A DNA stretch of 64,000 nucleotides, from positions 58,426 through 122,425 of the forward strand of contig JAGOSG010000001.1 of NCBI GenBank assembly GCA_018062445.1. The letters run 5' to 3'. This stretch comes from Minisyncoccota bacterium (lineage in GTDB: Bacteria; Patescibacteriota; Minisyncoccia; Phycocordibacterales; Phycocordibacteraceae). Within the stretch, counting starts at the first letter, position 1, and every line of letters starts with the position of its first letter. Position numbers and translations under genes: made by a program. The notes beneath the pieces are model-generated. The model was not told the origin of the DNA. It ran no database searches and saw nothing but the letters and a program-made list of their open reading frames with translations. Positions 22,540-53,219 of this stretch are shown in pieces.

Positions 22540-22575
22540 AAATTTCTTAAATCAAATAAAGACAAAAGAGCGGTG

Positions 22576-22611
22576 TATAGTATAATTTAACGATCGTTAA
22601 ATTATACTATA
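22576..22611. repeat. 36-bp perfect palindrome TATAGTATAATTTAACGATCGTTAAATTATACTATA (copy 1 of 4)
   Basis: Perfect dyad centred on CGATCG; related copies at 32309, 33926 and 39893. Confidence 0.85.
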
Positions 22612-24190: not shown

Positions 24191-25558
24191 ATGAAATGGA
24201 TACCTCCATTTAAGAATTCTATTTCTTTTGTATCGGTTTTTATCGGACTTTTTTTGTTTTTTGGGATTCTAGGATTTTCTCAAACCTCACCTACGATAGT
24301 TTTTGGTGATACCACCTCAGACATCCAAGAAAAAATAACTGAACAGAATGCCAAAATCGCAGCATTGGAAAAAGAAATTGCACAGTACGAAAGCACGCTC
24401 TATCAAATAGCCGGAGAAAAAACAACACTGCAAGGAGAAGTAAACAGAATTGATGTTTCTAGAAAAAAAATAGGAGCAACTATTTCAGTTACAGAAAATA
24501 AAATTGCTTCGGCAACACTACAGCTCAAACGCCTCGGTGGGGCTATTGATGATAAAGCAAAACGTATAGAAACTTCCAAGAAGACAATGGAGCAATCTTT
24601 CCAAGCTCTCTATCAGATAGGTGAGACCACGATAGTTGAACAACTCCTGAGTGCAGATGGGATGATTGAGGTCTGGCAAGAAGTAGATCGTGTAGAGCAA
24701 CTCAGTAGTGTTCTCAGAAATGAAGTTATTGATCTTCAAAATACAAAAGAATCTCTTACGGCGGACTATAGCACTACAGAAAAAGAGAAAGCGAAACTTC
24801 TTTCTTTGAAAAAGCAATTGTCTGATCAAAAAATACTTCTCGATCAAAATCGCAACGAGCAGGCCACACTACTTGCACAGACAAAAAATAAGGAATCTGC
24901 GTTCCAAAAACTACTTGCAGATAAACAGGCCGCAAAAGCTCAATTTGAAAAACAACTTAATGACTACGAAGCGAGCCTGAAATACACACTTGATCCAACA
25001 AGTATCCCAAAGGCAGGTAGCGGAGTTCTTTCATTTCCACTTGATTCTGCCTTTATGCTTCGCTGTAGGGATCGCACCAATACATTCAAAAATATATATT
25101 GTCTTACGCAATACTTTGGCAATACTGCATTCGCTCAAAGTGGTGCATACAATGACAAAGGTCACAACGGTGTAGATTTTGGAGCACCTGAAGGAACGCC
25201 TATTGTTTCAGCCTTGGGAGGTGTCGTTGTCGATACGGGCAACACAGATCTTTTCCGTGGTTGTTACTCATACGGTAAATGGGTATATGTACGCCATAAC
25301 AACGGACTAGGCACTATTTATGCCCACCTATCAGTCATTAGCGTCTCTAAGGGCTCTACAGTAGGCACAGGGAGTCTCCTTGGGTACAGCGGTAAGACAG
25401 GATACGCCACCGGACCACATCTCCATTTCAGCGTATATGTGGCAAGTGCCGTTAAAATTATTAAGCTTGGTGATGTGAAATCAATAACAAAGTGTGCTGG
25501 AGCCTATATGCCAGTAGCCCCTACGGAGGCCTATTTGAATCCGATGAAATACCTTTAG
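24191..25558 (+). CDS. M23 family metallopeptidase with N-terminal TM and long coiled coil (EnvC-like)
   Basis: GHNGVDFGAPEGTPI and HLHFSVY motifs of LytM/M23. Confidence 0.8.
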   Translation: MKWIPPFKNSISFVSVFIGLFLFFGILGFSQTSPTIVFGDTTSDIQEKITEQNAKIAALEKEIAQYESTLYQIAGEKTTLQGEVNRIDVSRKKIGATISVTENKIASATLQLKRLGGAIDDKAKRIETSKKTMEQSFQALYQIGETTIVEQLLSADGMIEVWQEVDRVEQLSSVLRNEVIDLQNTKESLTADYSTTEKEKAKLLSLKKQLSDQKILLDQNRNEQATLLAQTKNKESAFQKLLADKQAAKAQFEKQLNDYEASLKYTLDPTSIPKAGSGVLSFPLDSAFMLRCRDRTNTFKNIYCLTQYFGNTAFAQSGAYNDKGHNGVDFGAPEGTPIVSALGGVVVDTGNTDLFRGCYSYGKWVYVRHNNGLGTIYAHLSVISVSKGSTVGTGSLLGYSGKTGYATGPHLHFSVYVASAVKIIKLGDVKSITKCAGAYMPVAPTEAYLNPMKYL

Positions 25559-25612
25559 CTAGGGGTTAGGGTATAGGGTTTAGCGATTAGGCGACGCCCC
25601 GTCGGATCCGAA
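25548..25612. repeat. composite repeat: TTAGGG-like heptamer array plus tandem-hairpin element (reverse orientation)
   Basis: gctaggggttagggtatagggtttagcgattaggc + cgacgccccgtcg + ggatccgaagggatc. Confidence 0.7.
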
Positions 25613-25665
25613 GGGATCATTTATTATGGAGATGCAAATCCGAAACCTCACACCGCAAACAAACT

Positions 25666-26187
25666 CTAGTGGTGGTTTTTATTAAGATACAAAAGCCTAA
25701 CGAGAATAGGGAGGTCGCTCTTTGTTTTTTCTCCCCCCTCAATTCTCTTGAGTAAATCTAAAGGTTTAAACCAAAAAGATTCAAAGAAATCAGTTGGATT
25801 GTAGTCTGGTACAGTATCCATTTTCAATTCAAATATCATTTGAAACGCTTTGAGTCCATGCTCTCCTCCTTTAAAATACCCAATAACTTTGTAAGGAACC
25901 ACTCCAGTGTCAATATTTAACTCTTCCGCCATTTCACGCCTAAAAGTTTGTTCATATGTTTCTCCACTTTCAACATGACCACCCATACTCATATCGAGCC
26001 CAAGAGGTGCAATTTGTTTATGAGCTGTGCGTCTAGGAATCCATAACTCTCCGCTTGAATTCACAATAAAGGCATTTACCGCTCTGAAGTTATTTAGATG
26101 TTTAGCGTGCACCTCAGAACGCTTTTCTCGTCCTATGACTAGGTCATTTTCATCAACAAGATCAAGATACTCGTCGGTGTTATCCAT
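25666..26187 (-). CDS. Nudix hydrolase
   Basis: Nudix box GGHVESGETYEQTFRREMAEELNI. Confidence 0.8.
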   Translation of the reverse strand: MDNTDEYLDLVDENDLVIGREKRSEVHAKHLNNFRAVNAFIVNSSGELWIPRRTAHKQIAPLGLDMSMGGHVESGETYEQTFRREMAEELNIDTGVVPYKVIGYFKGGEHGLKAFQMIFELKMDTVPDYNPTDFFESFWFKPLDLLKRIEGGEKTKSDLPILVRLLYLNKNHH

Positions 26188-26630: not shown

Positions 26631-26662
26631 AAAAACCCTCCAGCTCGGAGGGTTTTTTATTT
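26631..26662. terminator. bidirectional intrinsic terminator
   Basis: AAAAA-CCCTCC-agctc-GGAGGG-TTTTTT. Confidence 0.75.
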
Positions 26663-28937: not shown

Positions 28938-28948
28938 ACGCTTTTATT

Positions 28949-28979
28949 AAAAAACCTCCCCGCATGGGGAGGTTTTTTA
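28949..28979. terminator. bidirectional intrinsic terminator
   Basis: AAAAAA-CCTCCCC-gcat-GGGGAGG-TTTTTT. Confidence 0.8.
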
Positions 28980-28998
28980 ATACTTCCTATTCCACAAT

Positions 28999-30457: not shown

Positions 30458-30545
30458 ACGATTTAATGATTTTGGCCCATAGGGGCCGTTAGTGATGATG
30501 TAAACCTGCTTTGAGTTCCCCTTCGTAATAATCGAAATTGGGGTA

Positions 30546-30572
30546 CTAAAAAAGCCGGCCCGAAAGCCGACT
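30546..30572 (-). terminator. minus-strand intrinsic terminator about 220 nt downstream of the LOG gene
   Basis: On the minus strand: AGUCGGC-uuucgg-GCCGGCU followed by UUUUUU. Confidence 0.5.
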
Positions 30573-30729
30573 ACCTCACTACGCTAGCACTGGGAACTTT
30601 TGGTGTCAAGGCTTGCGGAACCAAAAAACACTCTTCTACGGCTCTACAGAGCCACAAAAATGCTGGTGGGGAAATAGAGGTTTTTAAGATATTTTCGACG
30701 TTGAACCCTCCCGCGAAAACGACGAGGCT

Positions 30730-30789
30730 TGTTCCCTACGGAACCGACGAGGCGTCGCCTAAACGCTAAACCTTACCCTCTATCCCCTC
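30730..30789. repeat. composite repeat: tandem-hairpin element plus CCCTAAA-like heptamer tail
   Basis: GTTCC-ctac-GGAAC, CGACG-agg-CGTCG, then cctaaacgctaaaccttaccctctatcccc. Confidence 0.7.
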
Positions 30790-30792
30790 TTC

Positions 30793-31524
30793 TTAGCATT
30801 TGACGAGCTTCAAAATTTCCTGATGAGCCTCTTCAGGAGTGTCAGCCACCACAAAAAGGTCTAAATCTTCCTTGTTGATGGTCTGATACTTAATGAGGAG
30901 GTGTTCTTTAAAGAAGTTGAGGAGTGGTGTCCAGTATTCCCTATTGTAGAGAATTATAGGAATCCGCTTGATTTTGTTGGTTTGAACTAAGGTCAAGATC
31001 TCAAACAACTCATCCATAGTCCCAAAACCGCCCGGGAAGTAGATATATACCTCAGAGGCAAAGGAAAGCATCACTTTCCGAGTGAAGAAATAATTAAAGA
31101 GGGCCGTGTCGGTGAGGTAGGGATTAACGTGCTGTTCAGTTGGAAGTTTGATGTTAAGCCCTACAGATTGCCCTCCTGCTTCAAATGCTCCCTTACTTGC
31201 AGACTCCATAACACCTCCTGCACCACCTGTAATAACCACAAATCCTGATTTAGCGAGCTTCTCCGCAAGCAATCGCGCATCTTCATATACCTTTGGATTC
31301 ATATGAGAACGAGCTGAACCAAAGAAGGTCGCAGCCAGACGATATTTCCGGAGCATGGAGAATCCATCAATCAATTCACCCATTATCTTAAAAATACGCC
31401 AAGACTCCATGTCTTTAGTGTGGTCAGTTTTTTCAGGATCACAGACACGAAAATCCCCTTCCATGCGATGTTCGCCAGGAGGATTTACTATTCGGTATTT
31501 TCTTTGCGGATCAGACATGGTCAA
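30793..31524 (-). CDS. LOG family protein (TIGR00730; cytokinin riboside 5'-monophosphate phosphoribohydrolase-like)
   Basis: GGAGGVMES… and PGGFGTMDELFE (PGGxGTxxE) motifs. Confidence 0.85.
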   Translation of the reverse strand: MTMSDPQRKYRIVNPPGEHRMEGDFRVCDPEKTDHTKDMESWRIFKIMGELIDGFSMLRKYRLAATFFGSARSHMNPKVYEDARLLAEKLAKSGFVVITGGAGGVMESASKGAFEAGGQSVGLNIKLPTEQHVNPYLTDTALFNYFFTRKVMLSFASEVYIYFPGGFGTMDELFEILTLVQTNKIKRIPIILYNREYWTPLLNFFKEHLLIKYQTINKEDLDLFVVADTPEEAHQEILKLVKC

Positions 31525-31544
31525 AGTGTAACATTTGAAACTAC

Positions 31545-31581
31545 TAGCTTACAGCTTTCAGGTGTCAGCTTTCAGCTTTTT
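31545..31581. repeat. AGCTTTCAG-type heptad repeat
   Basis: tagcttacagctttcaggtgtcagctttcagcttttt. Confidence 0.6.
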
Positions 31582-31594
31582 GGGGAAAGAAAAA

Positions 31595-32194
31595 CTACTT
31601 AGAAAGCCAAGGGATTGGAAAAGGAGAGAACTCTGGGAGAAGAGGCTTTCTGTAGAGGATCCGTGAAGCAACTTCAGCGTGCGAGAGGGCGCCAGTGAGA
31701 GCATTATGGGGCTTCGGCTCTTCTGGAATACCTACATATTTAAGAGCGGTGTCTAGAGTCAGTTTTGTGTGATGTTTCTCCTCATCAAACGGAGGGGTAA
31801 TTCCTCGTTCCACCATATGCATGTAGGTAAGGGTGTGAGTATCAATCGTTCGGTGCGCAAAAGGAAAATTAATACCTCCCCTCTCGCAAGCGGCAATCAA
31901 GAAGTCTCTATCAAAAGATGGATTTTGTCCTACAAAAGTTCGATCATGAACAGCAAGTGTCCATGAAATAAAATCTTGCACCAGTTCTATTTCGCTTTTC
32001 TTTGAAAGATCAATGGCTTGTGCGTGTGAAAAACCGTTAACCCCAAGTGCTTCTTCATTAATATGAGCTCCATCCCACACCCTACACTCGCCATAAAAAC
32101 GATTAGCAGGAGTAGCAACATCGATTCCCCCAATTGAGAGTATCGAATTCTTATGAGGCTCTGTGCCTGAGCATTCAATGTCTAGAGCAATCAT
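31595..32194 (-). CDS. DEDD-family 3'-5' exonuclease (DnaQ/RNase T-like)
   Basis: Exo I motif MIALDIECSG, 199 aa. Confidence 0.8.
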   Translation of the reverse strand: MIALDIECSGTEPHKNSILSIGGIDVATPANRFYGECRVWDGAHINEEALGVNGFSHAQAIDLSKKSEIELVQDFISWTLAVHDRTFVGQNPSFDRDFLIAACERGGINFPFAHRTIDTHTLTYMHMVERGITPPFDEEKHHTKLTLDTALKYVGIPEEPKPHNALTGALSHAEVASRILYRKPLLPEFSPFPIPWLSK

Positions 32195-32195
32195 T

Positions 32196-32240
32196 TTAGT
32201 TAGGGGTTAGTGTTTAGGGTATAGGGTATAGGGGTAAATG
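32196..32240. repeat. TTAGGG-like heptamer array
   Basis: ttagttaggggttagtgtttagggtatagggtataggggtaaatg. Confidence 0.7.
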
Positions 32241-32308
32241 TACAATAAAATGAGAGCTGGTGTGTAGATATCTTCTCACTCAAAATTAAGAGTACACACG
32301 CTCAAAGA

Positions 32309-32352
32309 CCTGTATAGTATAACTTAACGATCGTTAAATTATACTATACAGG
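32309..32352. repeat. 44-bp palindrome CCTGTATAGTATAAcTTAACGATCGTTAAATTATACTATACAGG (copy 2)
   Basis: One mismatch to a perfect dyad; followed by a T-run. Confidence 0.85.
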
Positions 32353-32388
32353 GTTTTTAATTTTTATATTTGACTTAATTTGAAAAAT

Positions 32389-32423
32389 TGAAAGCTAGAA
32401 CCTAGAAGCTAGCACCTAGAGCC
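32389..32423. repeat. AGCTTTCAG-type heptad repeat (opposite arm)
   Basis: tgaaagctagaacctagaagctagcacctagagcc. Confidence 0.55.
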
Positions 32424-32427
32424 TTCT

Positions 32428-32832
32428 TCACATCCCATTACAACGGCCAGCGTGGTAGCCGGCACCCTCAGCGGAAACCCTACTGCTGAAATAAATTCTG
32501 TCCATTGAAGAAATCTTTACCGCAAGTGGGCACCATGGGAAAAAGTAAGTACTTCCTATCTTCGACGCTACAAAATAGCCCGCAACCTGAGGTAGTGGCG
32601 GTAAGGTAATTTCCTCTCTAATACCACCAACACCCAAGAATCCAGTGAGAGCTGAAGCACTTTGACCATTTGGATAGATCACCTTAAATTGGCCTTTTTC
32701 TCCGTAGAAAACAGATAATCTCCCAAGCCCAAAGGCCAACGATGCAACTAACACAATAACGATAACAATTAGTGTGTTTTCCCATACTCTCGCCCCTAGA
32801 GCCTTGATTTTATTAATGAAATCACGAAACAT
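32428..32832 (-). CDS. hypothetical protein with N-terminal TM helix
   Basis: 134-aa ORF, no family recognised. Confidence 0.45.
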   Translation of the reverse strand: MFRDFINKIKALGARVWENTLIVIVIVLVASLAFGLGRLSVFYGEKGQFKVIYPNGQSASALTGFLGVGGIREEITLPPLPQVAGYFVASKIGSTYFFPWCPLAVKISSMDRIYFSSRVSAEGAGYHAGRCNGM

Positions 32833-33315: not shown

Positions 33316-33346
33316 CAAAAACTCCGCACATGTGCGGAGTTTTTTA
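33316..33346. terminator. bidirectional intrinsic terminator shared by convergent rpmA and rplI
   Basis: AAAA-ACTCCGCACA|TGTGCGGAGT-TTTTT, a perfect 20-nt palindrome. Confidence 0.8.
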
Positions 33347-33793: not shown

Positions 33794-33886
33794 ACCTAAT
33801 AGCTTACCGTCTAACGAGCCGAGGGGGAAGAGAGGAAATTTCTCTCTTCCCCGAGCGAGAGCTGACGGAAAACCACTTTGTGGTTT

Positions 33887-33915
33887 ACAGGTTTCAGCTC
33901 TCAGGTGCCAGTTTT
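33887..33915. repeat. AGCTTTCAG-type heptad repeat
   Basis: acaggtttcagctctcaggtgccagtttt. Confidence 0.5.
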
Positions 33916-33925: not shown

Positions 33926-33968
33926 ACCTGTATAGTTTAATCTAACGATCGTTAAGTTATACTATACA
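33926..33968. repeat. 44-bp palindrome family, diverged copy 3
   Basis: cctgtatagtttaatctaacgatcgttaagttatactatacag. Confidence 0.8.
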
Positions 33969-34022
33969 GATCTTTTTATCTTTAGGGTTCCCCTGTTTGG
34001 CTTAGAGAATTGAAAAACCAGA

Positions 34023-34078
34023 TGATCCCTTCGGATCCGATGAAGTATCGCCTAGTCACTAAACGCTAAACCCTTCTA
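34023..34078. repeat. composite repeat: tandem-hairpin element plus CCCTAAA-like tail
   Basis: GATCC-cttc-GGATC, CGAT-gaagt-ATCG, then cctagtcactaaacgctaaaccc. Confidence 0.7.
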
Positions 34079-34079
34079 C

Positions 34080-35294
34080 TTACTTTCCTGTAATCAAAAA
34101 CTCCGCAGCCCTTTCTAGTTGAGGGTCACGCTTTGCATCTATATCTTCCTCAGTAACTGCCACTTCAATATCAGGAACTATACCCTCATGAGAAATAGAG
34201 ACTCCATTAGGGGTTAGCCAGCGAGCAATAGTTATTTTTAATGAAGTATCTGCGGTTACATTAAAAAGTTGCTGTACCGACCCTTTACCGAATGATTTTC
34301 CACCAATAAGAGTTGCCTTGCCATGATCACGGAGTGCTCCCGCTAGAATCTCTGATGCAGAGGCGGAACCTTCGTCAATTAGAATCGCAAATTTTACCTT
34401 GTCAGAAAAAACATCATACCCACGACTTCGACTAACATCAGGAGCCTGCTTAGAACCAAAATCTTCGGTAACTATCACCTTCCCTACTGGCAAAAACCAA
34501 CTAGCAATGTCAACGGCCACCTCCAAGTAACCACCAGGGTTACCACGAAGGTCAATAATCATTTTATTGGAACCTGAATCAGCAAACTCACGGATAGCCT
34601 GACGGAACTTCTCGGGAGCATTTGCATTGAATGTAAAAAGGCGGATTACAAACACGCCATCAGGTCGCGATGTTGTCTTAATGGTTGGGAGATTGATAGT
34701 GGCTCGAACTAGCGTTACATCAAATGGAGCATCTTTGCCACGAATCACTGTGATAGTGACCGGCGTACCAATTTCTCCTCGAATAACACTGACTGCATCA
34801 TCAACAGATATGCCTACAGTATCTTTACCTTCAATTTTTAGAATGATGTCCCCGCTCCTCATTCCAGCCTTTGATGCAGGCGTACCTTCAAGTGGCGCTA
34901 CTACGGTAAGGATTCCATCTTTAAGACCTAACTCCATCCCAACACCACCAAAATCACCTTGAACTTGGCTATCAAAAAGCTTTTTCTCTTTTGGAGGGAA
35001 AAAGGTTGTATAAGGATCACCATAAGAAGAAGCGAGGCCTTCTATCATTCCCCACAACCTATCTTCATCGGTACTCGTTGCCGTAGTGGTGGATGGAGTA
35101 AAATTTTGATCAAGTAATTCCCACGCCTTAAATAATGGCTGTAGATCCGCCTTTGAATAATCTGTAGCGCCACGCGCCTGAGTTGTCCAAGGAACCATTC
35201 CTCCAGCTTCTGTACCAACAAAGAAGGCAACAATGGCAACAAGTACTACCGCTATCAGTGCAGTGCGAAGTCCAATTTTAGAATTGTCTTTCAT
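34080..35294 (-). CDS. ctpA: carboxyl-terminal processing protease (S41) with PDZ domain
   Basis: N-terminal TM, PDZ, S41 core IDLRGNPGGYL. Confidence 0.88.
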   Translation of the reverse strand: MKDNSKIGLRTALIAVVLVAIVAFFVGTEAGGMVPWTTQARGATDYSKADLQPLFKAWELLDQNFTPSTTTATSTDEDRLWGMIEGLASSYGDPYTTFFPPKEKKLFDSQVQGDFGGVGMELGLKDGILTVVAPLEGTPASKAGMRSGDIILKIEGKDTVGISVDDAVSVIRGEIGTPVTITVIRGKDAPFDVTLVRATINLPTIKTTSRPDGVFVIRLFTFNANAPEKFRQAIREFADSGSNKMIIDLRGNPGGYLEVAVDIASWFLPVGKVIVTEDFGSKQAPDVSRSRGYDVFSDKVKFAILIDEGSASASEILAGALRDHGKATLIGGKSFGKGSVQQLFNVTADTSLKITIARWLTPNGVSISHEGIVPDIEVAVTEEDIDAKRDPQLERAAEFLITGK

Positions 35295-35326
35295 TGTTTC
35301 CTATTATGCCACAGAGAAGCGTTTAG

Positions 35327-35403
35327 GGTTTAGGGAATAGCGTTTAGGTTTGTGAATCTCTAAAATTTTTCCCCTAAACGCTGACCACTAAACACTAACC
35401 CCT
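35327..35403. repeat. inverted pair of TTTAGGG/CCCTAAA heptamer arrays in the divergent ctpA/corA promoter region
   Basis: agcgtttagggtttagggaatagcgtttaggtttg … cccctaaacgctgaccactaaacactaacccc. Confidence 0.7.
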
Positions 35404-35420
35404 GCTGGTATACTGTTCTG

Positions 35421-36335
35421 ATGATAAACCGTTACGAATACGAGGGCATAATTTGGATAGACATAGAAAATCCAACCGCTGATGAAATTGCCGAGGTCGG
35501 GCAAGAATTTAACCTTGGACTTTTACTCCGACAAGAGCTGTTGGCACCAACAATAAAGCCCCGTGTAGATTTATATCCCGAGATTGTCTACACACTTCTT
35601 CATTTCCCAGCACGAAGACACACGCACAATGTACAAGAAAGTCAGGAGGTCGATTTCGTTATCGGCAAACACTTCATCATTACGGTGCACTATGACACCA
35701 TTGATGCTCTTGTTGATTTTGCTCGATCATTTGAAGCCGCGATGCTTCTTAAGCGCACGACAGGGAAATTCCACAGTGGACATGTACTCTTGGAACTTAC
35801 GCAACGACTCTACCAAGAAGTGGAATATGAATTAGATTCCCTTGAAGATTCTGTAACTGCGATTGAAACGGCAATATTCTCAGGACGTGAGAAAGACATG
35901 GTCTTAGCAATATCGCGTGTCACTCGTGAACTCATTGATCAAAAACGCACACTCTCCATGCATGCTGAGGTTCTTGCTTCTCTAGAACAAGCGACTACGA
36001 CCTTATTCGGTGAACACTTCACCGAATATCTCCGTGGAGTATCTGCATTTCACTACCGTGCGCACCAACGAGCACTTGCCATGATGGATATCGTCACCGA
36101 ACTTCGAAAAACAAACGACTCCCTCTTGACCACACGCCAAAACGAAATCACAAAAAACCTTACTATCATGGCATTCATTACCTTTCCGCTTTCCGTGGTA
36201 GCAGCGGTGTTCGGAATGAACACTGAACACACACCCATCGTCGGATCCCCGAACGGTTTCTGGATCATCACGGGAGCCATGGTCGTCCTTACCGCAGTCT
36301 TTTTCATCTACTTTAAGATTAAGAAGTGGTTCTGA
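35421..36335 (+). CDS. corA: magnesium transporter CorA
   Basis: Two C-terminal TM helices with the GMN motif (AVFGMNTEH). Confidence 0.88.
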   Translation: MINRYEYEGIIWIDIENPTADEIAEVGQEFNLGLLLRQELLAPTIKPRVDLYPEIVYTLLHFPARRHTHNVQESQEVDFVIGKHFIITVHYDTIDALVDFARSFEAAMLLKRTTGKFHSGHVLLELTQRLYQEVEYELDSLEDSVTAIETAIFSGREKDMVLAISRVTRELIDQKRTLSMHAEVLASLEQATTTLFGEHFTEYLRGVSAFHYRAHQRALAMMDIVTELRKTNDSLLTTRQNEITKNLTIMAFITFPLSVVAAVFGMNTEHTPIVGSPNGFWIITGAMVVLTAVFFIYFKIKKWF

Positions 36336-36342: not shown

Positions 36343-36366
36343 AGTGCCAGCTTATAGCTTCTAGGG
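36343..36366. repeat. AGCTTTCAG-type heptad repeat (short)
   Basis: gtgccagcttatagcttctaggg. Confidence 0.45.
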
Positions 36367-36398
36367 AGGAAATGAAGGGATGCTCTGGTTTTTTTCTT

Positions 36399-36435
36399 GC
36401 CCTAAACCCTATACCCTAGTGGCTAAACCCTAATT
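36399..36435. repeat. CCCTAAA-type heptamer array
   Basis: gccctaaaccctataccctagtggctaaaccctaatt. Confidence 0.7.
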
Positions 36436-36506
36436 CAGATGTGCAAAACTCCGTGTACAAACCTCCGCATAACGGCTCTTTTTATAGATTTCTTTAAAAA
36501 CGACGA

Positions 36507-37904
36507 GTGCTACAATGCACTGCTATGGCAAACCAAGGTGCACGAATTCCTCCACAATCCACTGAAGCAGAGCGAGCACTTTTAGGCTCAGTGATGATCA
36601 AGCCTGACTCAATTCATGAAGTCACCGACTTTGTATCGGCAGATTCTTTCTATGTAGAAAAACACCGCCTCATTTATCGAGCATTCACTGACCTTACAAC
36701 TGGCGGAAATCCTATTGACCTATTGTCTACTGCAAACCGCCTCAAAGAGACAAATGACTTAGAGCGTGCTGGTGGTAACGCGTACCTAGCTGAACTCGTG
36801 AGTGCAGTACCAAGCTCAGCAAACCTCAAACACTATGCTGAAATTGTTCAGAAAAAATCAATGATGCGTTCCCTCATTTCCGCATCGTCAGACATTGGCG
36901 AGATGGGCTATGACGAATCACAAGACATTGATGAACTGTTAAATAGCGCTGAAAAAAGAATCTATGAAGTGACCAGCTCCCCTTCTGTTAGAAAGTTCGT
37001 TGCGATCGGTGATGCCTTGGGAGAGGCGTGGGAGCGTTTTGATAACCTCCACAAGGGTGACTACCAAATGCGAGGCATCCCAACAGGCTTTGATGCCCTC
37101 GACAACATGCTTGCAGGCTTTCAACGCTCTGACCTCATCATCCTTGCCGCTCGTCCTTCCGCAGGTAAAACCGCTTTTGCCTTGGACATCGCGAGGCAAA
37201 CCGCCATTAAGCACGGCACACCAGTGGGAATTTTTTCACTTGAAATGAGCGCCCAGCAGTTAGTCGACCGCATGCTCGCAGCTGAGGCTCGAGTAGACGC
37301 ATGGAAACTCCGTACTGGAAAAATTTCTACTGATGAAGAATTTGAAAGAATCCGCGATGCTATGGGTCGTCTGTCTAAAGCTCCAATTCACATCGATGAT
37401 CAACCTGCAACAAATGCACTCGGTATGCGCTCTGCAGCTCGTCGATTAAAACGAGAGCACGGCATTGGCCTCCTTGTGGTTGACTACCTTCAGCTCATGA
37501 GTCCAACATCATCTCGCTCATCAGACTCAATGGTTCAGCAAGTCACCGAAATCTCTCGTTCTCTAAAAACCCTTGCTCGTGAACTCGACGTTCCCGTACT
37601 TGCACTCTCCCAGCTTTCGCGTGCCATTGAACAAAGACGAGGCCGTCCTCGCCTTTCAGACCTTCGTGACTCTGGTTCAATTGAGCAGGACGCCGATGTG
37701 GTTATGTTCATTCACAATGAAGATAGATACAATGACAACAAAGAAGAGCGAAGTAATGTTACTGAAATCTTGATTGAAAAACACCGCAATGGTCGTACAG
37801 GGAAAATAGATCTCTTCTTCGATGTAGAACGAGCAACATTCTTACCTATTGAAAAATCAGGCTTTAGTGGAGGCGCCCCAGGAAACGCACAGGATGATTT
37901 TTAA
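36507..37904 (+). CDS. dnaB: replicative DNA helicase DnaB (alt start 36525)
   Basis: N-terminal domain …PPQSTEAERALLGSVMI…, Walker A GARPSAGKT, RecA-like core; no intein. Confidence 0.92.
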   Translation: MLQCTAMANQGARIPPQSTEAERALLGSVMIKPDSIHEVTDFVSADSFYVEKHRLIYRAFTDLTTGGNPIDLLSTANRLKETNDLERAGGNAYLAELVSAVPSSANLKHYAEIVQKKSMMRSLISASSDIGEMGYDESQDIDELLNSAEKRIYEVTSSPSVRKFVAIGDALGEAWERFDNLHKGDYQMRGIPTGFDALDNMLAGFQRSDLIILAARPSAGKTAFALDIARQTAIKHGTPVGIFSLEMSAQQLVDRMLAAEARVDAWKLRTGKISTDEEFERIRDAMGRLSKAPIHIDDQPATNALGMRSAARRLKREHGIGLLVVDYLQLMSPTSSRSSDSMVQQVTEISRSLKTLARELDVPVLALSQLSRAIEQRRGRPRLSDLRDSGSIEQDADVVMFIHNEDRYNDNKEERSNVTEILIEKHRNGRTGKIDLFFDVERATFLPIEKSGFSGGAPGNAQDDF

Positions 37905-37911
37905 TTTAAAA

Positions 37912-37988
37912 AGGTGTCAGGTTTCAGCTGTCGGCTTTCAGCTTTGAATTCAGAAAAAGCTGGCACCTGGCACCTGAAAGCTGTAACC
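37912..37988. repeat. AGCTTTCAG-type heptad repeat, both arms (near-identical to the copy at 53139)
   Basis: ggtgtcaggtttcagctgtcggctttcagctttgaattcagaaaaagctggcacctggcacctgaaagctgtaacc. Confidence 0.75.
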
Positions 37989-37996
37989 TATTCAAT

Positions 37997-38957: not shown

Positions 38958-39269
38958 TTAAACGCTCTCAATCTTCACTTTCATGTTGGGCTGTTTGTGC
39001 CCTCGTTTCTTGTAGTATCGGCTTTTTGCTTTGTACTTTACAACAACAACCTTAGGAGCGCGTCCTACCATCAAAACGGTACCAGTAACTTTTGCACCTG
39101 AAACAGTTGGAGCACCAACTGATGCTTTTGCTCCATCGTCAGTAAAAAGGACAGCATCAAAGGTGATTTTGTCGTCTTTCTTGACATTAGCTATTTTTTC
39201 AATCGTAATCAAAGAACCCTCTTTTACAAGGTACTGCTTCCCTCCTGTCTTTATAACCGCAATATTCAT
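38958..39269 (-). CDS. rplU: 50S ribosomal protein L21 (start at MNIAVIK; ORF opens at 39305)
   Basis: MNIAVIKTGGKQYLVKEGSLITIEKI matches the L21 N-terminus. Confidence 0.88.
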   Translation of the reverse strand: MNIAVIKTGGKQYLVKEGSLITIEKIANVKKDDKITFDAVLFTDDGAKASVGAPTVSGAKVTGTVLMVGRAPKVVVVKYKAKSRYYKKRGHKQPNMKVKIESV

Positions 39270-39309
39270 ATCAGAGCATCGTACCAAAAAAGCCCTAAAA
39301 AGCAACTTT

Positions 39310-39350
39310 CCTTAGGGTCTAGGGGTCAGCGTTTAGGGTTTAGGTATTAG
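39310..39350. repeat. TTAGGG-type heptamer array just upstream of rplU
   Basis: ccttagggtctaggggtcagcgtttagggtttaggtattag. Confidence 0.7.
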
Positions 39351-39351
39351 T

Positions 39352-39531
39352 TTTTAAAGCTGAACGTCGGCCTCAGGCGCCCTTCTACTTAAAGTACGCA
39401 AAAGTCCTGCAATCAAATGGGCAGGTATTTTATCTAGAGACTCAGGTCTCGCAAGTGCATTTGCCCGCTCTGGCCGAGTTCCACGACGCCCACGCTTACG
39501 CCTAGAAACAGTTTCGTTCTTTGCTTCATTC
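39352..39531 (-). CDS. hypothetical 59-aa Arg-rich protein upstream of rplU
   Basis: MNEAKNETVSRRKRGRRGTRPERANALARPE…; ORF only, below the ORF-track cutoff. Confidence 0.25.
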
Positions 39532-39892: not shown

Positions 39893-39938
39893 TACCTGTA
39901 TAGTATAATTTAACGATCGTTAGATTATACTATACAGG
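39893..39938. repeat. 44-bp palindrome family copy 4 (ACCTGTATAGTATAATTTAACGATCGTTAgATTATACTATACAGGT)
   Basis: One mismatch to a perfect dyad; T-run follows. Confidence 0.85.
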
Positions 39939-39975
39939 TCTTTTTCGCCTTTTATCCGATTATTTGATTTAAGAG

Positions 39976-40100
39976 GTGGAGAGGCTGACACCTATTCTAC
40001 GCAAGCAGAGCTTCTTCTTATTGTTCGCTCGGAAATATTCAAACCTAACACCTCCCATTTATTCTACGCAAGCAGAGCTTCCTCTCATCGTTCGTTCGGC
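39976..40100. repeat. two-copy tandem direct repeat (about 63-bp period) downstream of glmS
   Basis: acacctATTCTACGCAAGCAGAGCTTCttcttattgttcgctcgg / acacctcccatttATTCTACGCAAGCAGAGCTTCctctcatcgttcgttcgg. Confidence 0.6.
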
Positions 40101-40133
40101 ATTATCCAAGCCGAGCTTGTCTACTGCCCTCAC

Positions 40134-41954
40134 TCACTCGACAGTGACTGACTTCGCAAGATTACGAGGGCGGTCAACATTGAGTCCCTTATCCGCCGCA
40201 AAGTGATAGGCAAAAAGTTGGAGCGCGATTATGGAAAGCACTACTGAAAGTTCTTCAGATGCTTTTGGAATGTATATAACATGATCAGAGACCTCTTTGA
40301 TTTTCTCATCACCAGCAGTGGCAATAGCAATCACTGGTCCTTTACGGGTACGTATCTCTATCATGTTAGAAACAGTTTTCTCGTACACTGAATCTTGAGG
40401 AACAATGGCAACTGTTGGGAATTTCTCATCAATCATTGCAAGTGGTCCGTGCTTCATCTCCCCTGCCCCATATCCTTCCGCGTGTACGTATGAAACCTCT
40501 TTGAGCTTCAGTGCTCCTTCTAAGGCTGCGGGATAACTAAACTTGCGACCAATAAAAAGGAAATCTCGTGAATCTTTATATACATTAGCAACTTTACGAA
40601 TTTCTTCAGACTGTTCCAACACTTTTTTTGCTAACTCTGGCAAACTTTTAAGTGCATTAGCCAATGCAACACCATCATCTTTAGAGAGTGAGCGAGTACG
40701 GCCAAGGAAGAGTGCAACGAGTGAAAGAATAACCACTTGAGAAACAAGAGCCTTGGTGGAAGCAACGCCAATTTCGGGGCCTGCATGGTTATACACTCCA
40801 GCGTCTGTCTCACGAGCAATCGTAGAGCCTACGGTATTCACAATGCCAAGAGTAAGTGCACCGTGTCGCTTTGCTTCACGGATAGCTTCAAGTGTATCGA
40901 GAGTCTCGCCTGACTGGGAGATTGCCAAGACTGCGGTGTTTGGTCTGATAACTGGCTTTCTATAACGAAATTCCGAAGCAAGTTCCACTTCAACAGGAAC
41001 ACCAGCAAGGGATTCAATTAAATACTCACCAATGAGTCCTGCGTAGTATGCGGTTCCACAACCAACAATAATAAGTCTGTCGATATTTTGAAGCTCTTTT
41101 TCAACTGCTTCTAGTCCGCCAAGTTTTGCCTTCCCTTCTTCCATAATAAGCCTGCCTCGAAGTGCATTCTCTATAACCTCAGGCGATTCCATCATCTCTT
41201 TCAGCATGAAATGTGGATATCCCCCGCGTGATGCCTCCCCAACATCCCAAGTAATGGTTTCAGATGGGCGATCAACCTCGGTTTCTAAAAGTGTACGCAC
41301 ACGGTGCGTTGTAGGCGTGATAATCGCAACGTCTCCATCAGAGAGAAACATCATTTGCTTCGTGTGTTTCAAAATTGGCGTTGCATCAGAGGCAATAAAA
41401 TTCTCTCCGTCTCCTAAGCCCACGACAACAGGAGAACCCATTCGTGCAGTAATAATGGTGTCGGGATCTTTTGCATAGGAAATCAGAAGACCATAAGTGC
41501 CTCGAAGTTTCTTCAGGGTATCGATAACAGCATCTTCAAAATTAAGTTTGTCTTTCAGAGCTCCTTCAATAAGGTGCGCAATCACTTCAGTGTCAGTCTC
41601 TGATTTAAATGTATGACCTCCCGCTAAAAGCTCTTCTTTTAACTCACGGAAGTTTTCAATAATGCCATTGTGAATTACAAACACATCTCCATCACAGTCG
41701 CCATGTGGGTGCGCATTGACTTCATTTGGGGCTCCGTGAGTTGCCCAGCGTAGATGCGCTATCCCAGAAGTCGCAGGATAGTCTTTTGTCATTCTTTTGG
41801 TAAGCTCTGCAACCGCGCCAGGGGTCTTCACCACATCAAAGCCAGGCATATATATTCCTGCAGAATCATATCCTCGGTACTCAAGCATTGAGAGCCCTTC
41901 GAGAAGGATTGGTGACGCTTTTTTAGAGCCAGTGTAGGCAAAGATTCCGCACAT
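40134..41954 (-). CDS. glmS: glutamine--fructose-6-phosphate aminotransferase
   Basis: N-terminal MCGIFAY (Ntn Cys), two SIS domains, 606 aa. Confidence 0.95.
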   Translation of the reverse strand: MCGIFAYTGSKKASPILLEGLSMLEYRGYDSAGIYMPGFDVVKTPGAVAELTKRMTKDYPATSGIAHLRWATHGAPNEVNAHPHGDCDGDVFVIHNGIIENFRELKEELLAGGHTFKSETDTEVIAHLIEGALKDKLNFEDAVIDTLKKLRGTYGLLISYAKDPDTIITARMGSPVVVGLGDGENFIASDATPILKHTKQMMFLSDGDVAIITPTTHRVRTLLETEVDRPSETITWDVGEASRGGYPHFMLKEMMESPEVIENALRGRLIMEEGKAKLGGLEAVEKELQNIDRLIIVGCGTAYYAGLIGEYLIESLAGVPVEVELASEFRYRKPVIRPNTAVLAISQSGETLDTLEAIREAKRHGALTLGIVNTVGSTIARETDAGVYNHAGPEIGVASTKALVSQVVILSLVALFLGRTRSLSKDDGVALANALKSLPELAKKVLEQSEEIRKVANVYKDSRDFLFIGRKFSYPAALEGALKLKEVSYVHAEGYGAGEMKHGPLAMIDEKFPTVAIVPQDSVYEKTVSNMIEIRTRKGPVIAIATAGDEKIKEVSDHVIYIPKASEELSVVLSIIALQLFAYHFAADKGLNVDRPRNLAKSVTVE

Positions 41955-41957
41955 AAA

Positions 41958-41991
41958 CTAGGGTTTAGGGTTTAGTGAATAGTGTTTAGAG
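41958..41991. repeat. TAGGGTT heptamer array immediately upstream of glmS
   Basis: ctagggtttagggtttagtgaatagtgtttagag. Confidence 0.7.
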
Positions 41992-42039
41992 AAAGACTCA
42001 GCTAATACTACCTGAAAGACACGCATTCGGTAACAGCAA

Positions 42040-49190: not shown

Positions 49191-49233
49191 CTGAAAAGCT
49201 GGAAGCTGACAGCTGGCACCTGAAAGCTACTAG
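49191..49233. repeat. AGCTTTCAG-type heptad repeat (opposite arm)
   Basis: ctgaaaagctggaagctgacagctggcacctgaaagctactag. Confidence 0.6.
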
Positions 49234-49242: not shown

Positions 49243-50049
49243 TCAACCTCTTGCAAGCTCGGTTGCAAAAACTTTTCCTGTGATTTCTACAATGGGTTCG
49301 TGTATGTGCGGTGTTGAAACAACAATGCCACCCTTAAACATATCTTTTTCTGCACCAACAAGATCGGTAATCCGTGCACCGGCTTCTAGTGCGATTACCA
49401 TTCCTCCTGCGATATCCCACGCCTTGAGTCCGCGATGTGCCATGGCATCACTCTCTCCAGAGGCTACAGCGCAGATTTCCAAGCTTGCTGCCATTTTTGA
49501 TTCAACAACAGCACCCGCCTCAGTACATCCTTCTCTAATCGCACCGTGCATGCGAAGCGTTTGTTCACTTGCTCCTGTATCCAAAAGAATGTGTGCGCCT
49601 TTCATAGACTCACATGAAGACACTAATATTTTTTCTCCGTTTAAAAATGCACCGCCCCCTCGCTTACCACTATAGAGTTTATTTTCCGCGGGAGAGTACA
49701 CCACGCCAACCTCGGGTACTCCGTCTACAATAAGCCCGATTGAAATAGCGAAGTAGGGGTTACCACTCGAAAAGTTTTTAGTGCCGTCAATTGGGTCGAC
49801 AATCCACATTGAGTTACCCTCTGGCATACCCTTCACCTCTTCGCTGAGAATTGGATACTCAGGAAACTCTTTCCGCAAGGCATCAAGGACATAGGTGTTC
49901 ACCGCAAGGTCAGCAACGGTAAGAAGCGAGCCGTCATCTTTAATACTTCTGTCTGCATCCGTTATCTTTCCAAAATATTGGAGCGCAATATCACCAGCGC
50001 CACGAACGATTACTTCTAGTTTTTCTAAAGAAATATCAGACATACTCAA
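49243..50049 (-). CDS. suhB: inositol monophosphatase family protein
   Basis: WIVDPIDGTKNF and other IMPase motifs. Confidence 0.85.
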   Translation of the reverse strand: MSMSDISLEKLEVIVRGAGDIALQYFGKITDADRSIKDDGSLLTVADLAVNTYVLDALRKEFPEYPILSEEVKGMPEGNSMWIVDPIDGTKNFSSGNPYFAISIGLIVDGVPEVGVVYSPAENKLYSGKRGGGAFLNGEKILVSSCESMKGAHILLDTGASEQTLRMHGAIREGCTEAGAVVESKMAASLEICAVASGESDAMAHRGLKAWDIAGGMVIALEAGARITDLVGAEKDMFKGGIVVSTPHIHEPIVEITGKVFATELARG

Positions 50050-51368: not shown

Positions 51369-53108
51369 TCATCCTCCAGTTTGTGCACGGTCAGGAGGGA
51401 TCTCGTAATAGTTTATAAGAAAATGCACAGTATTCATAAAGGGCAATGTCCACGTCTCTGAAGCGTACTGTGCTCCCTTAGGATACACCGCAAAAAAGAA
51501 GACGAGAAACTTTGGATTGTAGGCTGGGAAGTAGCCAAAAAATGAGTGGAGGTAGCGGTCGGCGTAGTACCCACGGGCGTCAGGGCGGGCAACCTGCGCC
51601 GTTCCCGTTTTTGCGGCAATGCTGTAGTCGGCCATTTTTATTTTTCCACCCTGAAGAGCGTCATCTACTACCGTTACCAACATTCGCGTAATGGCTTCAT
51701 CACTCTCTTTACTTATTGCTTGCATAGGGGGACTCCATCCGAGTTTTTTAGTTATACCTCCACCATAGCGAAGCTCAACGCCAACATGTGGTGCAGGCAC
51801 TACCCCACCATTTGCAAGCGTAGCGAGTGCTCGAGTCATAGCGATGGGAGAAATTGCAATACCCTGCCCGAACGAGGCAGTTGCATATTCAACGGCACGA
51901 GGACTTTTAAGGTTGCTCACAAGTGGTGATGCTTCGTTAGGAAGATCAATACCTGTTTCGCTCGCAATGCCAAATTTTTCTAAATAACCAGCAAATTTTG
52001 CAGTGCCCATTCTAGCAACCACAAATGAAACACCAGTATTGAGCGACTGATTCAACACCTCCTGCATAGACACTACTCCACGTGCTTTATGGTCGTAGTT
52101 ATTAATGCGCAGTCCATCCAAGACGAGGAACCCTTTGTCGTTGTAAGTGGTAGTAGGAGTAACCGCACCTGAATCAATTCCTGCAGCCATGGTTATAGGC
52201 TTCATAGTGGAGCCAAATTCATATACGCGCTCAACCAAGGGGTTCGCAAATGCATTTGGGTCTGCATTTTTAAAATCATTCAAATCAAAGCCTGGGCGTG
52301 ATGCCATTGCAATAATGGCACCGGTTTTTGGATCCATAATAATTCCGCCAACCGTGTCAGAGTTCCACGCCTCATCATATTTTTTCAAAGCATCTTCAAG
52401 AAATTGCTGTACTGATGGTTCAATTGAGGTGACTAAATCAGCACCCGGCTCTACTGTGTCAGGAGAAAATTTTGCACGAATGTTTGTAAAGAGATCCGCA
52501 AAGAAGTTTACATACAGTCCTCCGTCTGAGCGAGACAAAGCGCCATTGTAATAGCGTTCCAAGCCGTATTGCCCCGCAACACTTTTACCATCAGCACCAA
52601 AACCCAAAAAGCCAATAGATTGCGCGGCAAGAACACGCCCAGGGTAAAAACGCCAGTGTGAAGCAAGTACCTGCACTCCAGTTATTTTTAACGCAGAGAT
52701 AGCAACCCCAACCTCTGGCGTTACCTGCTTGGCTATTTCAGCGTATACACTGTCTTTCTTTCGAGCTTTTTCAAGAAATACTGATTCATCAAGGTCGGGC
52801 AATAATTTTTTTAAAGCAGGGTAGACATTTTCTGGATCTCCAAGCCGTGAGGGATTAATAACAATAGTGTTCCCCGCTGCGATGGTTGCCGCCGAAATAA
52901 GTGAACCATCACGAGAAGTAAAAAAGATAGTACCTCGGTCAATTTGGTTGGTGCTTTGTTGCACATACTGACTTTCTGCCTTTAGGCGATACTCTTTGCC
53001 GTGAACCACTTGTAAAAAATACAAGCGTACCAAAAGCACTAACGCAATCAATAGAATAAAACCAGCGATAATGCGTATACGAAAAGCGAAGTTAGACTTA
53101 GCGGACAT
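51369..53108 (-). CDS. ftsI: penicillin-binding protein, class B transpeptidase (FtsI/PBP3-like)
   Basis: SxxK (STMKP), SxN, KTGTA; N-terminal TM; sits in the dcw cluster. Confidence 0.9.
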   Translation of the reverse strand: MSAKSNFAFRIRIIAGFILLIALVLLVRLYFLQVVHGKEYRLKAESQYVQQSTNQIDRGTIFFTSRDGSLISAATIAAGNTIVINPSRLGDPENVYPALKKLLPDLDESVFLEKARKKDSVYAEIAKQVTPEVGVAISALKITGVQVLASHWRFYPGRVLAAQSIGFLGFGADGKSVAGQYGLERYYNGALSRSDGGLYVNFFADLFTNIRAKFSPDTVEPGADLVTSIEPSVQQFLEDALKKYDEAWNSDTVGGIIMDPKTGAIIAMASRPGFDLNDFKNADPNAFANPLVERVYEFGSTMKPITMAAGIDSGAVTPTTTYNDKGFLVLDGLRINNYDHKARGVVSMQEVLNQSLNTGVSFVVARMGTAKFAGYLEKFGIASETGIDLPNEASPLVSNLKSPRAVEYATASFGQGIAISPIAMTRALATLANGGVVPAPHVGVELRYGGGITKKLGWSPPMQAISKESDEAITRMLVTVVDDALQGGKIKMADYSIAAKTGTAQVARPDARGYYADRYLHSFFGYFPAYNPKFLVFFFAVYPKGAQYASETWTLPFMNTVHFLINYYEIPPDRAQTGG

Positions 53109-53215: not shown

Positions 53216-53219
53216 TACA

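Follow-up and report, generated by a model that had tools for sequence, protein, structure and literature searches.

Introduction

To our knowledge, 35 years of cataloguing intergenic heptamer repeats in cyanobacteria, Xanthomonas, and Beggiatoaceae have yielded no accepted function for them. In heterocystous cyanobacteria, the units of the short tandemly repeated repetitive (STRR) sequences are CCCCAGT, TTGGTCA, and CAACAGT. In 2008, Elhai and co-workers reportedly described small dispersed repeats (SDR), which are tiny structured insertions nested in the heptamer repeats of Nostoc. This study examines degenerate heptamer arrays in a 64,000-nucleotide stretch of contig JAGOSG010000001.1 (GenBank assembly GCA_018062445.1, positions 58,426 to 122,425 of the forward strand), hereafter the window, from a groundwater metagenome-assembled genome (MAG) of the Parcubacteria/Paceibacterota, members of the candidate phyla radiation (CPR). 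We regard these arrays as a further case of a known, descriptively defined repeat class that we have not found described for this phylum; full-text searches of the literature turned up no article in which heptamer or simple-sequence repeats are connected with CPR, Patescibacteria, or Parcubacteria.

Among the long simple-sequence repeats of many bacteria, heptamers are the most abundant class, and slippage related to the polymerase footprint has been put forward as their source, according to later accounts of the original survey (Mrazek, 2007, as cited in PMC4679880 and PMC4692102). The (GGGAATC)n/(GGGANTN)n repeats of Xanthomonas are ~90% intergenic, mostly comprise ~4 units, and show position-specific conservation (Rehm et al., 2015; PMC4692102). 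They lie ~28 nt from the upstream open reading frame, form 70-75 convergent inverted pairs capable of stem-loop formation, and occupy the same spacers in sister species with differing length and sequence (PMC4692102). G-rich heptamers of Xanthomonas and Nostoc have been shown to be able to fold as G-quadruplexes (G4), and tandem degenerate heptamers, including Nostoc GGGGA(T/C)T, are dispersed in the spacers of Calothrix and Nostoc (PMC4692102). TAACTGA repeats, found in marine Beggiatoaceae and also in some cyanobacteria and Bacteroidetes, comprise 2-6 units and precede start codons by a few nucleotides, in spacers that have no ribosome-binding site; they are nearly perfect and occur as 169 direct sets versus 1 inverted set (MacGregor, 2015; PMC4679880).

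The arrays described here show the properties that define bacterial heterogeneous intergenic heptamers, namely a period of 7, intergenic location, a degenerate unit, and convergent pairs. Their closest match is the Xanthomonas repeats, with which they also share short arrays and the reuse of the same spacers in relatives. Unlike in Xanthomonas, the unit core is AG and not GGGA, most arrays cannot form G4, at least two unit flavours can replace each other at one site, the arrays harbour a nested structured module of 33 nt, and the host is a CPR bacterium with a genome of less than 1 Mb. A further likeness, to the Nostoc repeats, lies in the tiny structured insertions reportedly nested within those heptamers and in a co-occurring CGATCG-centred palindrome. 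The present family differs from cyanobacterial STRR1-3 in its units (nnYAGSK), its phylum, and its module of 33 nt with two hairpins, and from the SDR in that the evidence for mobility consists only of differing insertion sites among genomes. As with TAACTGA, whose complement TCAGTTA carries YAG, the sense strand is A-rich, but the present family has degenerate units, and half of its arrays are located after a stop codon or belong to an inverted pair.

Results

One heptamer family in several flavours

Results quoted for 82 kb cover the window and ~9 kb on either side, with gene positions taken from database gene calls; L numbers designate loci from related genomes and metagenomes. The original prediction placed degenerate TTTAGGG/CCCTAAA arrays of 3-6 units at eight loci, and all eight carry them, with the boundaries listed below. 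TTTAGGGTTTAGG was matched 19 times at ≤2 mismatches versus 1.8 expected, a number reached in 0/100 shuffles. Period 7 is the dominant short period and shows strong local self-similarity, with 72 self-similar windows at lag 7; the counts are 0 for lags 3 to 6 and 8 to 10, 1 for lag 11, and 21 for lag 12. The presumed enrichment over a Markov background was likewise borne out (18 period-7 arrays versus 0.72 in third-order Markov simulations).

The TTTAGGG arrays are not the separate family that they were taken for, but one flavour of a period-7 family with the unit nnYAGSK. Tandem Repeats Finder (period 7/14 arrays) and our own scan identified a second kind of heptamer (AGCTTTC, AGGTGTC, AGCTGTC, and similar units), which keeps the same AG register, occurs at 14 further places between 3.7 and 57.7 kb, and is the more numerous of the two. 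Among 106 phased units of both kinds, position 4 is A in 96% and position 5 is G in 94%, and the flanks of AG are drawn from restricted alphabets (K, H, and Y before; S and K after). The flavours form a continuum (CAGCT-CAGGT-TAGGT-TAGGG-TAGCG) and are mixed within single arrays; the pattern (YAGSKNN)x4 at ≤2 mismatches recovers both kinds, with 54 matches versus 0.15 expected. Because AG alone is fixed and flavours switch between ~95% identical genomes, one flavour resembles the plant telomere repeat by coincidence. The consensus of this flavour is that of the Arabidopsis-type telomere, and facing arrays are polarised as in a head-to-head telomere fusion, with the G strand running 5' to 3' to the junction; unlike telomeres, however, they consist of 3-6 degenerate internal units among syntenic housekeeping genes, are interchangeable with AGCTTTC, and have no chromosome end nearby. 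All-frame stop codons were considered as a conserved feature, since TAG every 7 nt covers three frames, and rejected because position 3 of the unit is C as often as T.

The arrays of the TTTAGGG flavour in the window are:
25555-25594, plus strand: GCTAGGG GTTAGGG TATAGGG TTTAGCG ATTAGGC; overlaps the TAG stop of the M23 peptidase gene 24191-25558
30757-30791, minus strand: 1 nt past the stop of gene 30793-31464/31518 (minus)
32196-32242, plus strand: read on the gene strand as CCCTATA/CCCTAAA; ends 1-4 nt before the ATG of gene 31595-32194 (minus)
34049-34079, minus strand: begins directly past the stop of the CtpA-like gene 34080-35294 (minus)
35316-35349, plus strand: left arm of an inverted pair, TTTAGGG TTTAGGG AATAGCG TTTAGGT, plus strand GCGTTTAGGGTTTAGGGAATAGCGTTTAGG; ends ~4-10 nt upstream of the ctpA -10 box
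35371-35406, minus strand: right arm of the inverted pair, plus strand CCCCTAAACGCTGACCACTAAACACTAACCCCT; directly upstream of the corA -10 box
36346-36366, plus strand: weak partner arm of the following array, AGCTTATAGCTTCTAGGG
36398-36434, minus strand: array between corA and dnaB
39309-39352, plus strand: 41 nt upstream of rplU; the last unit is a small hairpin, followed by a T run
41955-41992, plus strand: abuts the glmS start codon directly

Arrays of the sister and intermediate flavours are:
3741-3781, plus strand: sister array, TTCAGGT GTCAGCT ..., 3 nt past the dnaK stop; left arm of a hairpin pair
3792-3830, minus strand: sister array, right arm of that pair; runs into the dnaJ ATG at 3829
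13792-13824, plus strand: single sister array filling the 45-nt trpS-aspS spacer
31539-31585, plus strand: single sister array, of the TTTAGGG flavour instead in L007 and L013, and 38/41 identical in L010
32386-32427, minus strand: array of TAGGT/TAGCT flavour directly past the stop of gene 32428-32832 (minus); partner of the 32196 array
33880-33913, plus strand: sister array, partner of the 34049 array, with a palindrome element and a module between the two
37909-37992: inverted pair of sister arrays filling the dnaB-recR spacer; hairpin of -35.7 kcal/mol, z = -4.7
49193-49231, minus strand: single sister array, 11 nt past the stop of gene 49243-50043 (minus)
53132-53216: inverted pair of sister arrays between gene 53220-53597 (minus) and the penicillin-binding protein (PBP) gene 51369-53108 (minus)
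54532-54573, minus strand: single sister array filling the mraZ-rsmH spacer
55116-55153, plus strand: sister array of AGGTGTG type between lysS and mraZ, among the few that break the position rule given below
57677-57720, minus strand: single sister array overlapping the stop of the PBP2 gene 57717-59444 (minus)

Two statements of the original prediction stood in part. The sub-motif GGTCAGCGTTTAGGGTTTAGG, said to be shared by several arrays, has its only exact copy at 39324-39344, although two more copies with 3 mismatches each exist. Confinement of the TTTAGGG flavour to 25-42 kb holds as significant clustering (9/10 copies inside 16.5 kb; permutation p = 0.0015 over the 82 kb) but is not absolute, as a tenth array lies ~100 nt left of the window start (-108), ~25 kb outside the cluster.

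Arrays point from the gene into the spacer

The T/G-rich, AG-bearing reading of an array (TTTAGGG, TTTCAGC) is referred to here as the T-form and its complement (CCCTAAA, GCTGAAA) as the A-form. By hand curation of the 82 kb, ~27/32 arrays lie on the side predicted by a simple rule, with the T-form by the left gene and the A-form by the right gene of a spacer. This rule is symmetric under reverse complement, so that the sense strand shows the T-form after a stop codon and the A-form before a start codon; read 5' to 3', the AG-bearing G/T-rich strand leads away from the adjacent gene into the spacer. In 16 cases, the distance between a stop codon and the beginning of a T-form array is 0-11 nt. 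In 7 cases, an A-form array ends ≤4 nt from an ATG; the others extend to a point just upstream of a -10 box. Pairs of arrays number 10 in the 82 kb, and wherever two arrays share a spacer, in the window or in relatives, the order is T-form and then A-form (25:0). An independent detector gave the same facing order in 6/6 pairs, including one from L009 with the differing unit CAAGATT, and inspection by eye gave it for L040 and L058, which carry other units.

All curated arrays are located in spacers or overlap stop or start codons only. They occupy 23/63 spacers of ≥40 nt, i.e., about a third of the longer spacers, comprising 19/44 co-directional, 2/12 divergent, and 2/7 convergent ones. The earlier view of a lineage-specific intergenic repeat of a structural or regulatory kind, placed at gene 3' ends and beside promoters, is retained.

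Array turnover and constraint among relatives

Absence from relatives had been named in advance as a finding that would speak against the repeat; the arrays proved to be shared with them. Dense period-7 arrays were found in L007 (~95% nucleotide identity), L008 (~91%), L013/L046, L010 (~78%), L011, and L009, and none in L012 and L014. Some more distant Patescibacteria carry arrays with other units (AGTATGG, TAGGCGC, GACATTT, ACAACTN, CAAGATT, TTGTGAG). Arrays also occur in the lineages of L034, L040, and L058.

The flavour at a given spacer is exchanged among close relatives. In the spacer 31519-31594, the window, L008, L010, and L011 have AGCTTTC-type units, and L007 and L013 have units of the TTTAGGG type. 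An inverted pair occupies the ctpA/corA spacer of all close relatives, in four unit flavours: TTTAGGG in the window, L007, and L046; CAGGTTT/GAAAGCT in L008; AGCTTTC in L010; and ATAGGTT/AACCTAT in L011. L013/L046 carry the G flavour at most of the clustered spacers. At the stop of the M23 gene, a T-form array is present in 4/4 genomes compared, and the TTTAGGG flavour is found downstream of this gene in L013 and L010 too. The dnaB-recR spacer measures 8 nt in L011 and 92-215 nt elsewhere.

Arrays common to the window and L007 differ by few substitutions and never by unit number; elsewhere, the whole array differs. Slippage-type copy-number variation between 95% identical strains, which was considered, was thus not seen. 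The glmS spacer holds five differing units in the window versus one unit in L008, a difference for which recent slippage cannot account, and a different element in L007 and L010.

Some sequence has been retained in spite of this exchange. Between the window and L010, third-codon identity is 0.46-0.52, i.e., synonymous sites are saturated, and the 31539 array is identical at 38/41 positions (93%), including its non-consensus 5' part. Judged by this sequence comparison, at least one array is constrained.

In a separate observation, a NUDIX gene (25666-26187) with ~675 nt around it is present in the window and absent in L007. The breakpoint falls exactly at the end of the 25555 array and its module, and the arrays may therefore be recombination junctions for differences in gene content.

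Folding, terminators, and RNA families

Facing arrays fold as long imperfect hairpins with minimum free energies of -28 to -36 kcal/mol (z -2.1 to -4.7), and those of the AGCT flavour consist of 5-bp helices with 2x2 internal loops every 7 nt. The array hairpins do not combine a GC-rich stem with a U run, as intrinsic terminators do; a weak terminator score was obtained only for the small module hairpin and for the last unit of the 39309 array. Canonical bidirectional terminators (A run, GC-rich hairpin, T run) lie between convergent gene pairs at 28945-28982, 33317-33344, and 26631-26657, which indicates that the organism has ordinary terminators besides the heptamer hairpins.

The suggestion that the G-rich arrays could form G4 was examined with G4Hunter and a motif check and did not hold. 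Four runs of at least three G with loops of ≤7 nt (canonical G3+N1-7 x4) were found in 0/9 arrays, and no canonical motif occurs on either strand of the window. G4Hunter scores of the arrays were 0.55-1.15, against a reference threshold of about 1.2-1.5 or more. When loops of up to 12 nt were allowed, 2/9 arrays had four such runs (32196-32242, and 36396-36436 on the minus strand). The G runs fall on the variable unit positions 6-7 (S, K), which are the least conserved, vanish upon a flavour swap, and are absent from the sister flavour.

In a search of the window against Rfam 15, only a tRNA reached the gathering threshold, and within 24-44 kb only terminator-like sub-threshold matches were obtained. 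No known RNA family matched the arrays, the nested module, the 30458-30792 spacer, or the L007 element upstream of glmS, the last three of which are described below.

A nested module and other small spacer elements

Three TTTAGGG arrays run on into the sequence GGCGAYnnnnnRTCGGATCCGAAGGGATC, which forms a double-hairpin module:
25590-25618, plus strand: GGCGACGCCCCGTCGGATCCGAAGGGATC, in phase with the 25555 array, at whose end it is nested
30731-30759, minus strand: variant GGCGACGCCTCGTCGGTTCCGTAGGGAAC
34024-34052, minus strand: GGCGATACTTCATCGGATCCGAAGGGATC

As a 33-nt unit, TAGGCGAYnnnnnRTCGGATCCGAAGGGATCAY, the module was found in 25 contexts (the window, relatives, and 14 metagenome loci, L083-L096). 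It is nearly always placed in phase after TTTA within TTTAGSG arrays, and the spacers that it occupies differ among genomes. Pairing in its two 5-bp stems amounts to 98.6%, and 3/10 pairs show two-sided changes: CG and UA at 10:10 in the first, GC, CG, and UA in the second, and AU, GC, and UA in the third. No shuffle reached the observed covariation score.

Three other elements were noted in the same spacers. A 44-49-nt near-perfect palindrome with a CGATCG centre, CCTGTATAGTATAATTTAACGATCGTTAAATTATACTATACAGG, is present at 22574-22611, 32304-32352, 33927-33975, and 39895-39943; the four copies are 94-97% complementary between copies, and each is located between or beside heptamer arrays. A copy occurs in the dnaB-recR spacer of L008 and none there in the window, so this element appears to move or to be exchanged. 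Downstream of ctpA, a hairpin element of ~65 nt (ACCGTCTAACGAGCCGAGGGGGAAGAGAGG...CCTCTCTTCCCCGAGCGAGAGCTGACGG) lies at 33806-33872; in L010 it is found in two other spacers (orthologous to 32195-32427 and 37905-37996), one copy being inverted, and it appears to be a third type of small element that hops between spacers. Upstream of glmS, L007 (3583-3691) and L010 (~3990-4097) carry a conserved structured element of ~100 nt (CTTAGATTTTGTTAGTGAACG...CTTAGACCCTGTTAAA...TTTAATAGGGTG), which takes the place of the TTTAGGG array of the window and in which neither the glmS ribozyme nor any other Rfam family was detected at E ≤ 1. Fixed ends or duplications, as in miniature inverted-repeat transposable elements or repetitive extragenic palindromes, were not evident in spacer alignments, and no transposase is annotated in the 82 kb.

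Host and gene context

The original prediction treated the host as a generic bacterium. It is a CPR/Patescibacteria MAG: nearly all loci with >~45% identity to the CtpA-like protein belong to MAGs of Patescibacteria/Parcubacteria/Paceibacterota, mostly from groundwater. Window positions 24080-45294 are 100% identical to contig JAHZTO010000028.1 (GCA_020049755.1), and the occurrence of the same sequence in six independent assemblies excludes an assembly artefact. A cyanobacterial origin, which the heptamers together with the CGATCG palindrome could suggest, was rejected on this identity and because the relatives are all MAGs of Patescibacteria. The proposed gene labels ctpA, corA, rplU, and glmS were confirmed by Pfam, as was the position of the inverted pair between the divergent ctpA and corA:
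34080-35294, minus strand: S41/PDZ peptidase (CtpA-like), divergent from corA around the inverted pair
35421-36335, plus strand: CorA
38958-39269, minus strand: ribosomal protein L21 (rplU), with its start 41 nt from the 39309 array
40134-41954, minus strand: GlmS, with its start directly at the 41955 array

Housekeeping genes surround the arrays, among them dnaK/dnaJ/grpE, aminoacyl-tRNA synthetase genes, dnaB, recR, glmS, the genes for ribosomal proteins L9, L21, and L27, and the mraZ-PBP-mur cluster. G+C content is flat along the window (0.40-0.47), and synteny across 24-45 kb holds in relatives down to ~78% nucleotide identity; with this gene content, the idea that the arrays delimit an insertion was abandoned. 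About 12% of the 82 kb is non-coding (~88% coding).

Cumulative GC skew reaches its maximum near 12-16 kb, and the dominant gene strand changes from plus to minus near 25 kb; together, these would fit a replication terminus near the TTTAGGG-flavour cluster. Two 53-nt direct repeats (39993-40045 and 40060-40112; 85% identical, 67 nt apart) lie in the 321-nt spacer just 3' of the stop of glmS, which is on the minus strand. The 335-nt spacer 30458-30792 is conserved between the window and L011 despite saturated synonymous sites, contains a hairpin and T run on the minus strand at 30553-30572, and gave no Rfam match even at E ≤ 1; it is probably an unannotated structured RNA gene.

Promoter boxes beside the arrays

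Extended -10-like boxes, some of them next to arrays, include:
35303-35311, minus strand: TGGCATAAT, 8 nt before the ctpA ATG; kept in relatives while the adjoining arrays change
35406-35414, plus strand: TGGTATACT, 6 nt before the corA ATG
36508-36516: box of dnaB
39278-39286, minus strand: box of rplU

The core of the corA box, GGTATACT, is kept in L007, L008, L046, and L012, and TATACT is kept in L010 and L011. TGnTAnnnT boxes ending 6-9 nt before the ATG precede 9/74 genes versus ~0.2 expected, several more genes have a TAnnnT box without TG, and Shine-Dalgarno-like motifs are rare. With boxes so close to the ATG, the mRNAs are probably leaderless, and the sequence pattern suggests that leaderless mRNAs are widespread in this CPR lineage. 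As a possible explanation of the arrays themselves, sigma-70 promoters were rejected, as the consensus count was 33 versus 32.4 in shuffles and the conserved -10 boxes lie outside the arrays.

Discussion

What has to be explained is the heptamer family itself, its unit profile, its polarity, its block turnover, and its local constraint, all of them observed. We tentatively propose that the arrays may be polar, cis-acting boundary elements, which would influence either transcription or the transcript where genes end and would be spread by block recombination, a reading that is plausible but far from assured. RNA polymerase leaving a gene in either direction would first meet the G/U-rich form, with NAG every 7 nt. 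Where arrays are paired, a hairpin could be added that closes the transcript end and separates neighbouring transcription units, which are largely leaderless and poor in Shine-Dalgarno motifs. Whole blocks, already degenerate, would be kept or exchanged through recombination between arrays or strains, and not built unit by unit through slippage.

Several observations weigh against this proposal. No array is present in 40/63 spacers of ≥40 nt, so arrays are not needed at every boundary. About half of the arrays are single, which makes a hairpin impossible, and in pairs the arms are only ~70-80% complementary and are of the flavours T/T in 15, G/G in 3, and mixed in 6 cases; strict arm complementarity or flavour matching was accordingly rejected as a rule, as it is a tendency only (18 matched, 6 mixed). 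The array hairpins are not followed by a U run and have an A-rich 3' arm, the reverse of what an intrinsic terminator shows. The hairpin, then, cannot be the whole explanation of the arrays. Sense and antisense RNAs fold equally well (29 spacers; Wilcoxon p = 0.27), which means that a role at the RNA level is not favoured over one at the DNA level, and G.U versus A.C mismatches in the nested module give no strand signal either. The conservation of consensus-like arrays could come from continuing homogenisation rather than from selection, and termination, insulation, or stabilisation by the arrays are roles that we infer.

Alternatively, the arrays may be functionless or selfish, either a by-product of a mutational process biased towards 7 nt (slippage) or a miniature mobile or recombining element that settles in harmless spacers. 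This is possible, although we consider it unlikely. The general abundance of heptamers and the slippage proposed for them (Mrazek, 2007, as cited in PMC4679880 and PMC4692102) are in its favour, as are the wholesale replacement of arrays between close relatives, the spacers without arrays (such as the 8-nt dnaB-recR spacer of L011), the sharing of the same spacers with the mobile-looking module, 44-nt palindrome, and ~65-nt hairpin, and the lack of RNA strand asymmetry; local clustering of flavours also fits short-range copying or an imported segment. However, the units are not decayed identical copies, with AG ~95% fixed and the other positions restricted in alphabet, unit number is unchanged between 95% identical genomes, and one array is 93% identical where synonymous sites are saturated. 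The strict facing order of 25:0 and the close fit of arrays to stop and start codons require selection or a very specific insertion mechanism, and persistent junk is unexpected in a small, compact genome.

By analogy with HutP and TRAP, a multimeric protein might bind the arrays every 7 nt on single-stranded RNA (or DNA) by reading NAG, in which case the protein and not the hairpin would act; we consider this improbable. HutP binds XAG motifs 7 nt apart (U498, U505, U512) and reads only A and G (PMC2425495). The arrays resemble its sites in their information profile, with at least three NAG on one strand at 7-nt spacing, an invariant AG preceded by Y, and a tolerant 4-nt spacer. The 4-6 units per array would match a ring protein in valency, arrays occur singly as often as in pairs, and the lineage-dependent cores in distant relatives (AGTATGG, TAGGCGC, CAAGATT, TTGTGAG) would be expected if sites co-evolve with their reader. 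Against this, Pfam annotation of the 82 kb, the part of the genome searched, gave no HutP, TRAP, or other candidate, and no NAG occurs in CCCTAAA, the reading found on the sense strand upstream of genes. HutP, moreover, has one regulatory leader per genome with two sites around a GC-rich terminator stem, whereas here dozens of arrays lie at gene boundaries, after stops or upstream of -10 boxes, and no such stem was found between the arms.

That the G-rich arrays fold as G4 and regulate adjacent promoters or 3' ends is very improbable: despite the G-richness of the TTTAGGG flavour, the two arrays that qualify with longer loops, and the G4 potential of Xanthomonas and Nostoc heptamers (PMC4692102), no array has a canonical motif, the scores are low, and in close relatives the same spacers hold AGCTTTC units free of G runs. 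Equally remote is the idea that TTTAGGG arrays are the operators of one regulon (ctpA, corA, dnaB, rplU, glmS, and others) or mark a horizontally acquired 17-kb segment, for although the flavour is clustered and several arrays adjoin promoters, both versions were rejected on synteny, gene content, composition, and flavour swaps: the flavour changes at a given spacer among near-identical genomes while genes and -10 boxes stay, three arrays follow stops instead of preceding genes, the tenth array lies far outside the cluster, gene order holds around core housekeeping genes of flat G+C content, and a recombined segment or short-range copying accounts better for the clustering.

A bolder form of the boundary proposal, which we regard as a long shot, would be a polar punctuation code, in which NAG at 7-nt intervals is recognised by a dedicated multimeric factor on the strand leaving the gene, either nascent RNA or displaced DNA. 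If this is true, the factor would stop or process sense read-through at the 3' end of a gene and antisense transcripts at its 5' end, and it would amount to factor-dependent insulation or termination in bacteria whose transcription units are mostly leaderless and poor in Shine-Dalgarno motifs; the facing polarity of the Xanthomonas repeats would then point to a widespread, unrecognised mechanism behind bacterial heptamers.

For the annotation of such genomes, these findings carry a warning, as telomere-like or G4-like matches represent one aspect of a wider family of repeats. The analysis also suggests extended -10 promoters 6-9 nt before start codons, i.e., leaderless mRNAs, for this lineage. 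For the heptamer family itself, any mechanism is constrained in three ways: by an invariant AG in a tolerant 7-nt frame, by a strict polarity from gene to spacer, and by the retention of one array beyond neutral divergence amid flavour swapping. Relatives at graded distances expose these constraints, and the question of function thereby becomes testable.

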